From the NCBI GenBank assembly GCA_965231105.1, contig OZ246417.1, positions 100,094-164,093 on the forward strand: a DNA stretch of 64,000 bases, given 5' to 3'. A program made the translations under genes and the position numbers. This document shows, piece after piece, positions 23,101 to 24,758 of this stretch. The stretch comes from an uncultured Candidatus Saccharibacteria bacterium (GTDB lineage: Bacteria; Patescibacteriota; Saccharimonadia; Saccharimonadales; JACDBH01). The notes beneath the pieces were generated by a model that was not told the DNA's origin, searched no databases, and worked only from the letters and a program-made list of their open reading frames with translations. Each line of letters opens with the position of its first letter. Position 1 is the first letter of the stretch.

Positions 23101-24109
23101 TAACCGTGACGCCCAAGACCGCATCACCATGCGCTGGGTAGCAGAAAATGGCGTGAATACAGCTGCGAACTGGTACGGCTACACCACGCCTGGTGATACC
23201 CCAGACTTTGCACGGGATATTAACTGGACTATTAAAGAAAAGTATTTCCAGTTGCCTGGTGGAGCGCTCTTAACTGTTCGACCTACCGAGGCACAAACCG
23301 CCAACCAACGGGTATTCTCGCTGCCCAATATTCATGGTGATGTCTTAGTTACCACCGATGCCGATGGCACCAATACTGGCGCCTACGCCTATGGGCCTTT
23401 TGGTGAAGTCCTAAGTACCACCAAACCCGATAACTCCGGTGCCGAAAGCAGCTTTGGCTATGTAGGTCAACACGAAAAATTCACCGAAAATGATATGGTC
23501 CTTCAACCCATCCAAATGGGTGCTCGTACCTACATCCCTAAACTCGGTAGATTCATTAGCATAGATCCTGTTGAGGGGGGTGGTGCCAACCACTATGCAT
23601 ACCCCACAGATCCTGTTAATGAGTTTGATCTAGATGGGAAATTCTGGAGCCTCAAGTCTGTTGCGAAAGCTGTAACTAAAGTAGCTACCGCTGTATCGTA
23701 CATTCCAGGTCCAGTTGGGATGGTAGCTAGTGGGGTTGCTGTAGCAGGTAATCTGGCTCAGGGGAACTGGAAAGGTGCGGCAGTTTCCGCAACAGGATTG
23801 GTCGGCGGTGGCATAGTGGGTAAGTTGGCTTCGAAAAGTCGCCTGCTTAATAAAGTCGTTGCACCCGCCGTACAGTCACAGACAAAGTTACCCGTAGTGG
23901 GCGTCAAGAGCGTATTATTTGGCAATTCAAGATATACATCCTTTGGTAGAGGTGGATTAAATGGTAGATTTGTTAATAACTTTAAGGTAGGGTGGAGTAA
24001 TAATAAAATTAATCTTACGTTTAGGATCGGTTTAGGAACAAAATCAATGGGGACTAGAACTATAAGTAGATATCATATAGATTATGGAAATCTACGGAGG
24101 AGATTTTAA
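17162..24109 (+). CDS. RHS/YD-repeat polymorphic toxin with N-terminal signal anchor, three PA14 modules, RHS core and variable C-terminal tip
   Basis: 2315 aa. It has an N-terminal hydrophobic segment ([20 protein letters not shown]) and many YD repeats ([28 protein letters not shown] and others). The core motif is [25 protein letters not shown]...[15 protein letters not shown]. Confidence 0.92.
19271..19650 (+). other. PA14 domain 1 of RHS protein
   Basis: GLVGQYWNN...VNFRWD...[36 protein letters not shown]. Confidence 0.75.
19715..20110 (+). other. PA14 domain 2 of RHS protein
   Basis: [10 protein letters not shown]...LNFDWG...[31 protein letters not shown]. Confidence 0.8.
21305..21716 (+). 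other. PA14-like domain 3 of RHS protein (divergent)
   Basis: [38 protein letters not shown]. Confidence 0.55.
23456..23577 (+). repeat. 122-bp perfect direct repeat, copy 1 (RHS core-encoding)
   Basis: Identical to 24637..24758. Encodes [41 protein letters not shown]. Confidence 0.95.
23641..24106 (+). other. variable C-terminal toxin tip of RHS protein (unassigned family, Gly-zipper-like)
   Basis: This is the sequence after the [10 protein letters not shown] demarcation. It contains [41 protein letters not shown], and nucleotide composition turns AT-rich here. Confidence 0.6.
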
Positions 24110-24474
24110 TGATACATGAGACAGTGAAGTATGCCGATGGTGTATTTCGGGATATAAAGAACATTAAACGAGACGTATCAGGAAGCTCAGTTACTTACGG
24201 CTTATCCGTGGAGATTCAGGGCAGGTCTATTAAAATTGCATATTTTCTTATTCCATACGGTGAAGAAAAAGTAGGAGGGGATGCCCAGCTAATTATCGAT
24301 CCATTCCTCGATATGCGATTTGAGCAGGAGTCAACGAATGAAGATCTCAATAAAGATACAGATATAGCGCACAGTTATTTTAAAGCAGCTGTTGAAAATA
24401 GGTTATATGTAGAAAAAGTTAAGTTTCTAGGGATTCCCTTAAATCAAAAGCTAATAATAAAGGAAAACTTATAG
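24109..24474 (+). CDS. putative cognate immunity protein of the RHS tip
   Basis: 121-aa ORF whose ATG overlaps the RHS stop (TAATG), the position expected for an immunity gene. It is AT-rich and I recognise no family. Confidence 0.55.
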   Translation: MIHETVKYADGVFRDIKNIKRDVSGSSVTYGLSVEIQGRSIKIAYFLIPYGEEKVGGDAQLIIDPFLDMRFEQESTNEDLNKDTDIAHSYFKAAVENRLYVEKVKFLGIPLNQKLIIKENL

Positions 24475-24636
24475 GTTTATAATCCCAAATACTTAAGCAT
24501 GAAGCTTGAACACGATCCGTCACCACTAGAAGACTTAGGAAATTCATCTGTTGTATTTGATAAGGATTCCCGCTTTCTTAAGATGCAGAATTTACTAGGC
24601 GAAAGCCACTACAGACTTGTTGGTAAGTAGGCCCTC

Positions 24637-24758
24637 GGCTATGTAGGTCAACACGAAAAATTCACCGAAAATGATATGGTCCTTCAACCCATCCAAATGG
24701 GTGCTCGTACCTACATCCCTAAACTCGGTAGATTCATTAGCATAGATCCTGTTGAGGG
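24637..24758 (+). repeat. 122-bp perfect direct repeat, copy 2
   Basis: Identical to 23456..23577. Similarity decays immediately 3' of the repeat. Confidence 0.95.

Follow-up and report, generated by a model that had tools for sequence, protein, structure and literature searches.

The arrangement closest to the locus analysed here is that of the enterobacterial Rhs main/orphan loci, in which a full-length rhs gene has behind it, on the same strand, an rhs-CT fragment that is truncated at its 5' end and accompanied by an immunity gene of its own, as at STM0291/STM0292 of Salmonella Typhimurium (Poole et al. 2011, PMC3150448; Koskiniemi et al. 2014, PMC3967940). The Salmonella rhs-main and orphan have a core stretch of 522 bp in common at 95% identity, and recombination there fuses the body to the orphan tip, which is then expressed, and deletes the main tip with its immunity gene; a prior duplication was invoked because a simple deletion loses the main immunity gene (PMC3967940). 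Within the Saccharibacteria, 'Ca. Teamsevenus rhizospherense' encodes a secreted protein of about 2.3–2.5 kaa with RHS/YD repeats and PA14, adjoining a putative immunity gene, in a report that is silent on orphan tips and repeats (Starr et al. 2018, PMC6031116). A third group consists of the WapA-type Sec-exported YD-repeat toxins of Gram-positive bacteria, for instance those of Bacillus subtilis and Streptococcus suis (PMC12704120), in which a shell of RHS/YD repeats is joined to a polymorphic toxin at the C-terminus, with an immunity gene downstream and no type VI apparatus.

The locus in the window (the whole stretch of DNA that was analysed, 64 kb) is a new example of the known main/orphan arrangement and leaves the established enterobacterial picture unchanged. 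Compared with the Salmonella loci, the shared homology is perfect and much shorter (122 bp, 100% identical, as opposed to 522 bp, 95% identical), no more than about 60 core codons remain in the orphan, and the variable cassette starts about 20 codons before the cleavage motif and not at PxxxxDPxGL; the main protein, in a Saccharibacteria-like host, carries PA14 and an N-terminal hydrophobic segment with no PAAR/VgrG. To what is described for 'Ca. Teamsevenus rhizospherense' it adds an orphan module and an apparent recombination footprint, and from the WapA toxins it is set apart by a different N-terminal architecture, PA14 and DUF7948-like. The likeness to WapA is one of overall make-up. In the C-terminal displacement model that Jackson et al. 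are said to have put forward in 2009, new tips are gained and the older ones are displaced downstream, each with a piece of the core. The drop in GC content at the window locus, from 0.49–0.50 in the body to 0.34–0.39 in the tips and immunity genes, resembles that model, whereas the perfect flanking repeat of this one genome fits single-crossover (Campbell-type) integration or recent conversion. An Rfam scan of the window returned one tRNA and nothing else. The features of the locus, all on the plus strand, are as follows.

17162–24109, plus strand: full-length RHS/YD-repeat polymorphic toxin gene (ORF call, 2315 aa)
23390–23638, plus strand: RHS-associated core of the main gene, aa 2077–2159, ending at DLDG (TIGR03696 profile positions 1–75 of 76)
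23456–23577, plus strand: first repeat copy, R1, 122 nt, aa 2099–2139 of the main protein, holding the first Asp motif IDPVEG; exact match to R2
23578–23638, plus strand: remainder of the main core, 20 residues; diverged homologue of 24759–24819 in the orphan
23639–24109, plus strand: tip 1, the attached C-terminal region, about 155 aa
24109–24474, plus strand: putative immunity gene 1, 121 aa, starting at an ATG that shares bases with the RHS stop (TAATG) and is preceded by a GGAGGAG Shine-Dalgarno sequence
24475–24636, plus strand: spacer that resembles neither the RHS body nor the related loci and contains the TAG at 24628–24630
24637–24758, plus strand: second repeat copy, R2, with which the orphan fragment begins at its 5' end; exact match to R1
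24759–24819, plus strand: remainder of the orphan core, 20 residues; the L that follows completes the DLSGL motif
24820–25122, plus strand: tip 2, the putative toxin tip of the orphan, a basic region of about 100 aa in which the hydrophobic patch LLVDWFFPF is conserved
25131–25514, plus strand: putative immunity gene 2, 127 aa, DUF4288 (Pfam PF14119, 2.5e-9)

The main protein consists of an N-terminal hydrophobic segment, PA14 domains, an RHS shell, the RHS-associated core and the C-terminal tip 1. PA14 is matched in three stretches (Pfam, 1.3e-38, best at aa 701–822), with further Pfam matches to GLEYA and, weakly, to DUF7948; the RHS repeats are recognised by PF05593 RHS_repeat (2.1e-9, 38 bits against a cut-off of 22) and TIGR01643 (22.1 bits against 15.8), and the core by the NCBIfam profile TIGR03696 Rhs_assc_core (1.7e-13, 50.9 bits against 32.5). 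The N-terminal part of the translation contains a hydrophobic stretch of 20 residues, which we infer to be a Sec signal or anchor. When the entire main protein was scanned against Pfam, neither PAAR nor a VgrG-interacting domain came up as a sign of type VI delivery, and the ORFs near the locus, which encode a tRNA synthetase, a NUDIX protein, a PNPOx-like protein and a dockerin-like protein, do not link it to a type VI system. Delivery of the main protein is more likely to be Sec-dependent and surface-associated. The translations also contain predicted autoproteolytic Asp motifs, IDPVEG followed by a ten-residue second motif in the main protein and a corresponding ten-residue motif in the orphan; the second Asp motif is a variant, with DLxG in place of DPxG.

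Directly downstream lies the orphan fragment, in the same orientation as the main gene, 5'-truncated and with its own small ORF behind it. Its frame matches TIGR03696 only at profile positions 18–76 of 76 (4.4e-10), so the orphan starts inside the core domain; it holds only the last 60 or so core codons and lacks both the N-terminal body and initiation signals. The frame is open for 161 codons amid AT-rich DNA. As the earlier note had stated, a TAG (24628–24630) closes the orphan's frame just before the second repeat copy, 6 nt (GCC CTC) away. The spacer that contains it was also considered as a decayed final YD repeat left from an older shell, and this was rejected: it gives no Pfam match and resembles none of the collected loci.

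Each tip has its own family of relatives joined to RHS cores, and no known toxin family was matched above threshold by either tip in family profile searches. In tip 1, a helical, gamma-peptide-like module precedes a small conserved domain at the C-terminus; the relatives of tip 1, up to 50% identical, are mostly short orphan-like proteins. Homologues of tip 2 reach 40–60% identity (alignment A1). The AF2 models of tip 1 and of the orphan are of low confidence (pLDDT 51.7 and 58.2, respectively), too poor to serve as queries for a fold search.

It should be mentioned separately that the start of tip 1 resembles the lytic gamma peptides of nodaviruses, by a sub-threshold match to Pfam PF01829 and by PDB matches to nodavirus gamma peptides, and that many RHS tips of this lineage open with a gamma-like module directly past the autoproteolytic site.

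The small genes behind the tips are putative immunity genes by position. The TAATG overlap suggests that the first is coupled in translation to the RHS gene; family profile searches with it gave no match. No relatives of either gene were found beside related tips in L068–L074, and no conserved pairing was seen there; the contigs bearing P0002 and P0017 stop directly past the tip. A metagenome scan with the second gene and a literature search for DUF4288 likewise returned nothing.

The two copies of the repeat are identical at 122 of 122 nucleotides, as had been claimed, and each yields the same 41 residues in the frame of its own ORF. The match does not extend to the left at all, the first mismatch on the right is at 23578/24759, and the two starts are 1181 bp apart. 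Across the window the next longest exact direct repeat measures only 23 nt, and chance therefore cannot account for an identity of 122 nt. The statement in the earlier note that identity collapses immediately 3' of the repeat has to be corrected: the next 61 nt still agree at 43 positions (70%) and in 13 of 21 residues, being homologous core, and the repeat search returned the pair as 183 nt at 90%. Random-level identity is reached only past DLDGK/DLSGL, where the two tips show no homology (28/120 nt), and is also found upstream of the copies (27/120 nt). The repeat ends 61 nt, or about 20 codons, short of the boundary between core and tip, and because it ends there an exchanged unit would take in the last third of the core and the second autoprotease motif.

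The breakpoint is sharp, with 0 mismatches in 122 nt followed by 18 in 61. With 18 mismatches placed randomly along 183 nt, all would fall in the last third with a probability of (1/3)^18, about 3e-9. At the codon level, there is no synonymous difference in the 40 codons of the repeat, and the next 21 codons contain 7 synonymous and 8 non-synonymous differences. When different loci are compared, this 122-nt block shows only 54–67% identity, and the following 61 nt 48–75%; the block is no better conserved between loci than what follows it, which means that protein constraint does not yield identity of nucleotides. Together with the absence of synonymous differences, this points to recent recombination, and not to selection on the protein, behind the identity of the two copies. 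Judged by sequence, the perfect identity is explained at least as well by a past event, the latest recombination (whether displacement, integration or gene conversion), whose trace it would be, as by a role in the next one.

A trivial origin of the repeat would be an error of assembly, by which a segment was duplicated or two strains were merged into a chimera. Graphs built from short reads are unable to phase a repeat of 122 nt, and in ERR2586216 contig L001 passes from the repeat into tip 2 without the expected break, so that the tip 1 branch may be weak there. Nevertheless, independent short-read assemblies of three runs (ERR2586215/6/7; a literature search for these runs found no mention of them) contain contigs 100% identical to the window, which shows that the repeat is not an assembly duplication. 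One of them (L003, 23548–24666) covers the unique, coding segment between the copies with 30 nt of the repeat on each side, and another (L001) joins the entire second copy to tip 2. Using every edge of the graph once requires all four junctions, and no single linear path exists other than the assembled order; the unrelated assemblies L068, L070, L072 and L073 show this architecture too. We regard an artefact as highly improbable. The Logan contigs of the three runs break at the repeat, and unitigs at k = 31 are blind to phasing over 122 nt and hence to heterogeneity in the population.

The absence of a proper start for the orphan bears on two other explanations. The first in-frame start that it could use is an internal ATG at 24676, within the second repeat copy. 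One might suppose that the block is kept identical for the sake of an internal promoter and/or start codon, the orphan and the gene behind it acting as an intracellular toxin–antitoxin-like module. The ATG lies inside the repeat, the 148-aa ORF that begins there is present in NCBI-derived protein collections (P0001), and in Salmonella, internal promoters that drive internal expression of the toxin lie ahead of PxxxxDPxGL, in sequence that main and orphan have in common (PMC7043789). Here, however, the ATG has no Shine-Dalgarno sequence before it, neither copy contains a sigma-70-like match on the plus strand, and the total number of such matches is at the shuffle background (21 found against 20.5 expected), as the scan for promoters and terminators as a whole gave results at or near background. 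A short signal, moreover, cannot explain why every synonymous site is identical over 122 nt, and the block diverges between loci to the extent given above. We therefore consider selection for an expression signal very unlikely.

According to the second explanation, the repeat is a mere scar of the last insertion or displacement, and the orphan is decaying, with only the second immunity gene kept against neighbours with tip 2-type toxins. The missing start codon ahead of 24676, the missing Shine-Dalgarno sequence and the in-frame TAG 6 nt upstream agree with it. Relatives such as L068 deploy tip 2-type tips on a full-length RHS protein, so immunity against them would be useful, and orphan immunity genes have been described (PMC10539506). 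Against decay argues the frame of tip 2, which is fully open and retains the family-conserved residues, including the second autoprotease motif. We see this explanation as possible, although on balance not probable; it is compatible with a repeat that also promotes recombination.

Our preferred interpretation, which we consider probable, is that of a main-plus-orphan RHS polymorphic-toxin locus whose repeat identity stems from recent recombination and whose repeated block offers homology for further rearrangement. Directly observed are the repeat, its reading frames, the domain assignment, the sharp breakpoint and the recurrence of architecture and mosaic in related arrays; the toxicity of the tips, the immunity conferred by the small genes, the history of the locus and any switching under way we infer from the sequences and their arrangement. 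A secreted PA14/RHS protein of 2315 aa would bear tip 1, next to its putative immunity gene, and a downstream fragment apparently devoid of promoter and start would carry the core end, tip 2 and the putative immunity gene 2, the 122-bp repeat forming the first two-thirds of the core fragment of the orphan. In the recent event, tip 1 may have been installed and tip 2 displaced downstream, by C-terminal displacement or by Campbell-type integration of a tip cassette; equally possible is a later gene conversion. Deletion between the two copies would then remove 1181 bp, with the loss of tip 1 and immunity gene 1, and join the body to tip 2; unequal exchange between them would give a duplication.

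The anatomy and frames fit the deletion that the earlier note proposed: the 1181 bp hold tip 1 and its putative immunity gene, and the predicted recombinant is in frame, an RHS protein of 2098 + 161 = 2259 aa with tip 2. By analogy with Salmonella, a simple deletion would cost immunity 1 and make the recombinant sensitive to its siblings (PMC3967940). The same note called this the classic orphan-module mechanism, directly visible in the sequence. Substrate and anatomy do match the published Rhs model, but the mechanism itself is not visible. Neither a recombinant, with body, repeat and tip 2 joined, nor an ancestral configuration was found in the protein, genome and metagenome collections searched.

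This result follows from the lack of a near-identical strain in any of these collections. Leaving aside the source itself, the collection of 5.8 billion proteins contains no match above 60% identity to body, tip 1 or tip 2, and the searches gave nothing above 60% for the orphan, 50% for tip 1 and 59% for the terminal part of the RHS body. An exact search of the JGI metagenome contigs with a 45-mer of the repeat gave no match, and exact-protein look-ups for the 148-aa ORF and the 2315-aa protein gave no record. The scan of species-representative genomes returned a single real relative, non-syntenic (L005), with an RHS protein of 2419 aa to which the main protein is 54% identical over 998 aa. 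This closest species-level relative has one tip and neither orphan nor repeat, so the array is not universal.

Arrays do recur in other assemblies. L068 contains a 2443-aa PA14-RHS protein, a small ORF and a pair of orphans that likewise have small ORFs, and the tip attached to its full-length RHS protein is related to tip 2 of the window (31% over 107 aa, E 7e-8); further arrays are found in L072 and in L069–L071. L070 repeats the mosaic, with two cores identical at 118 of 122 positions, then at 37 of 61, between random flanks, and its breakpoint falls after DPV(E/Q)GG, at the same place as in the window. In L073, two 1099-bp units of orphan plus immunity gene differ at 6 positions and represent a tandem duplication. 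The L070 mosaic and the L073 duplication lend indirect support, from relatives, to recombination in such arrays.

A bolder reading concerns Saccharibacteria-type RHS arrays in general. The first 122 or so nucleotides of the core fragment (YVGQHEK ... DPVEGG) would be a dedicated recombination handle, kept identical within an array by frequent exchange, and the mobile cassette would consist of the last 20 core codons, the tip and the immunity gene. Switching in an ultra-small epibiont genome would then be regular and of high frequency, like cassette-based antigenic variation, and not a rare accident, and cassettes of the tip 1 type would bring a virus-like (nodavirus gamma-type) membrane-active entry module. 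As a whole, we hold this reading to be unlikely.

Taken together, the mosaic, which passes sharply from 122/122 to 43/61 and recurs in an independent array, places the edge of the cassette some 20 codons ahead of the cleavage motif, and the junction between body, repeat and tip 2 provides a concrete target by which the frequency of switching can be tested by PCR. The gamma-like module bears on how released RHS toxins cross the target membrane and may be a more interesting lead than the repeat. The same cassette logic is found here in a Saccharibacteria-like (candidate phyla radiation) genome of less than 1 Mb (903-kb contig), with export that would do without a type VI system, and the locus thus bears on organisms whose epibiont competition and host interaction are little known.

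The full-length PA14/RHS toxin gene (the main gene) and the orphan module behind it share a direct repeat, with one copy in each (R1 and R2). The elements concerned are as follows:

17162–24109 (+), main RHS ORF of 2315 aa, with an N-terminal hydrophobic segment, PA14, RHS/YD repeats and the RHS-associated core
23456–23577, R1, in the main gene
from 23639, tip 1, followed by a 121-aa putative immunity ORF
24637–24758, R2, in the orphan
from 24820, tip 2, followed by a 127-aa DUF4288 ORF, putatively for immunity

R1 and R2 agree at 122 of 122 positions, bearing out the earlier note, which had them identical base for base; the identity has no leftward extension, and mismatches start at 23578/24759. 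Since the second-longest exact direct repeat across the 64-kb window measures only 23 nt, a chance origin is excluded. The copies are spaced 1181 bp apart, each is translated in the frame of its own ORF into the same sequence, and a TAG (24628–24630) does end the orphan frame directly before the repeat, 6 nt 5' of R2. Identity was also said to collapse immediately 3' of the repeat; instead, 43 of the next 61 nt (70%) and 13 of 21 residues still match, and the random level is reached only past DLDGK/DLSGL (28/120 downstream; 27/120 upstream of the repeat).

The main protein contains three PA14 stretches (1.3e-38) and RHS/YD repeats, and its TIGR03696 core domain occupies aa 2077–2159. Because the repeat corresponds to the first two-thirds of this conserved core, it does not mark the point where body meets tip. 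The first aspartate motif of the C-terminal autoprotease (IDPVEG) lies inside the repeat, and the second motif falls in the 61 nt that have diverged. Of the TIGR03696 profile, the orphan frame matches positions 18–76 only (4.4e-10), so the orphan starts inside the core; the first start codon in its sequence is an internal ATG at 24676, and a recognisable ribosome-binding site is lacking. The ATG of the 121-aa ORF overlaps the RHS stop and has GGAGGAG upstream. From position only, we infer that the tips are toxic and that the small ORFs are immunity genes: no known toxin or immunity family is matched by either, except DUF4288, a domain-of-unknown-function family, no conserved tip/immunity pairing was seen among related loci, and structure models of the tips were too uncertain for use. 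Immunity ORF 1, the spacer and the orphan share one reading frame (24109–25122, +), parted only by the TAGs at 24472–24474 and 24628–24630. The spacer is open for 51 codons, which by our own estimate has a chance of ~4% at this DNA composition, and it shows no similarity to any collected sequence.

The distribution of differences indicates that recombination made the 122-nt block identical. The 40 repeat codons show no synonymous difference, against 7 synonymous and 8 non-synonymous differences in the next 21; all 18 mismatches fall in the last third of the 183 aligned bases, for which p = (1/3)^18, or ~3e-9, if they were randomly spread. Between loci of different organisms, the same block is 54–67% identical and the following 61 nt 48–75%; the block is thus no better conserved than its flank, and protein-level constraint is not the source of the nucleotide identity. 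The shared block has a precedent in Salmonella as an internal promoter or start site (PMC7043789), which would permit toxin–antitoxin-like expression. This explanation finds no support here: the coding strand of the repeat contains no promoter-like match, counts are at background, and such a signal could not account for identity over 122 nt. Under recombination, an integration or displacement installing tip 1 is one possible event, and gene conversion or unequal exchange are others; the right-hand breakpoint is 23577/24758, and the left-hand limit is the end of the orphan's homology.

The repeat is supported at the assembly level. The source contig is 903,164 bp long, and independent Logan assemblies of three sequencing runs gave contigs 100% identical to the window:

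23548–24666, Logan contig L003
23701–24666, Logan contig L004
24729–26813, Logan contig L002
24637–30093, Logan contig L001

L003 comprises the entire inter-repeat segment, edged on both sides by exactly k-1 = 30 nt of repeat, and L001 holds the full repeat joined to tip 2; reads therefore contain every junction, and the repeat forms a genuine branch node. Only one single path uses each graph edge once, and that is the assembled order. Logan graphs do not tell which repeat entrance links to which exit, and they are compatible with a mixed population at the locus as well. In run ERR2586216, L001 passes from the repeat into tip 2 unbroken at the repeat end, and the tip 1 contig L004 begins only at 23701, within the conserved gamma-like module of tip 1 described below, so the branch from the repeat to tip 1 is missing or pruned in that run. 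Low coverage, k-mers common to other RHS genes of the sample, or a subpopulation devoid of tip 1 could each be responsible.

Judging by the length dependence known from E. coli, 122 bp of perfect identity should suffice for homologous recombination. Among enterobacterial Rhs loci, the recombination of orphan tips is textbook knowledge. Recombination between R1 and R2 would stay in frame and give a protein of 2098 + 161 = 2259 aa with an intact chimeric core. In reading the locus as a tip-switching substrate with the classic orphan-module mechanism, the earlier note was right about anatomy and potential and overstated the mechanism as directly visible. A simple 1181-bp deletion would lose the putative tip 1 immunity while siblings still deploy tip 1. 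The locus fits the main/orphan model described for Rhs systems. The Salmonella Typhimurium pair, rhs-main and its orphan, has 522 bp in common (95% identical), and recombinants expressing the orphan tip were selected during passage (PMC3967940). That event deletes rhsI-main, for which reason its authors propose a prior duplication of the locus (PMC3967940); the same immunity-loss cost applies here. An earlier study described PA14/RHS toxins with an adjacent immunity gene in Saccharibacteria (PMC6031116).

Searches of protein collections and JGI metagenome contigs returned no sequence similar enough to represent another strain. The nearest genome locus, in a Saccharibacteria MAG (L005), encodes an RHS protein of 2419 aa (54% identical), is not syntenic, and carries a single tip and a single small ORF, with the repeat absent. 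Judging by the related loci, orphan arrays are common in this lineage. A 110-kb Logan contig (L068, SRR33471244, 1737–12741) carries a 2443-aa PA14-RHS gene of the same architecture, a 136-aa ORF and two orphans, each with small ORFs; these orphans are longer, keeping 120–260 codons of shell, and agree with each other at 103/122 and then 38/61 positions. The tip attached to this RHS protein is related to tip 2 and aligns with it (31% over 107 aa, E 7e-8); full-length proteins elsewhere thus deploy members of the tip 2 family. L072 shows a main RHS gene and a small ORF, with a short orphan that belongs to the tip 2 family, and in L069–L071 a minimum of four cores is packed into 5.5 kb, alongside Ntox21, CdiI_N and DUF3885 genes. 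In L070 (ENA ERZ27282891; array also present in L069, GCA_964555145.1), two orphan cores at 1435–1633 and 5149–5347 agree at 118/122 positions (YVGQHEK...DPVQGG), then at 37/61, with random flanks. The breakpoint after DPV(E/Q)GG falls at the same codons as in the window, the same mosaic in an unrelated array. L073 (GCA_040383985.1, JAWVHF010011190.1) begins with two consecutive 1099-bp units (1–2198), each made up of an orphan tip and an 86-aa ORF, which differ at only 6 positions, all within 959–1043, and are followed by two more diverged cores; this is either a tandem duplication, as unequal exchange between cores would give, or an assembly expansion. Within-array core identity in the other arrays is an ordinary 61–88%. 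From these comparisons, the homology arm would be the 5' part of the core, and the exchanged cassette would start ~20 codons before the cleavage motif.

The body has a GC content of 0.49–0.50; the distal tip, the small ORFs and the next 3 kb have 0.34–0.39, a drop usual for horizontally exchanged toxin/immunity cassettes. Low GC (0.37–0.43 vs. 0.46 for the window) extends over 24000–29400, well past the orphan module, in a stretch that holds small membrane-protein-like ORFs and the following genes:

27842–28216, glyoxalase-family gene
28296–28715, DUF1761 gene
28751–29362, NYN-domain gene

This stretch is possibly a horizontally acquired island housing the RHS tips of this locus. On the other strand, shortly before the RHS gene begins (16619–16954, −), lies a 111-aa ORF made of ~72-nt repeat units, with matches to Dockerin_1 (2.9e-18) and to EF-hand models; it encodes a predicted calcium-binding repeat protein next to the toxin gene.

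The first ~47 residues of tip 1 (23639–23780, +), directly after the cleavage motif DLDG(K), form a module with W at position 3, IPGPxG and ASGVAVAG. Up to E 10, its PDB sequence matches are confined to gamma peptides of nodavirus capsids, at E 0.04–0.2 for the single sequence. With a profile of 15 tips, all six PDB matches are nodaviral (among them Flock House virus, 5.2e-5; Pariacoto virus, 8.6e-5; black beetle virus, 1.7e-4; Nodamura virus, 2.8e-3). A sub-threshold match of Pfam Peptidase_A6 (PF01829) covers these residues too (1.9e-4, 21.1 bits vs. a cut-off of 27). Searched against 1.84 billion proteins, the profile of tips retrieves 217 representatives, of which many are 2000–2970 aa long with the module 100–300 aa from the C-terminus. 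Ten mid-length matches were scanned: seven carry an RHS repeat family, and the other three have a pretoxin-HINT domain after the module. Given this domain order and the placement before the C-terminus, the module behaves as a pre-toxin unit, or perhaps an entry module, rather than as the toxin itself. Nodavirus gamma peptides are membrane-lytic helices freed by capsid autoproteolysis, and the look-alike in tip 1 would sit at the new N-terminus made by RHS autoproteolysis; the likeness could reflect homology or convergence. Our literature search returned no paper linking nodavirus gamma peptides with RHS tips.
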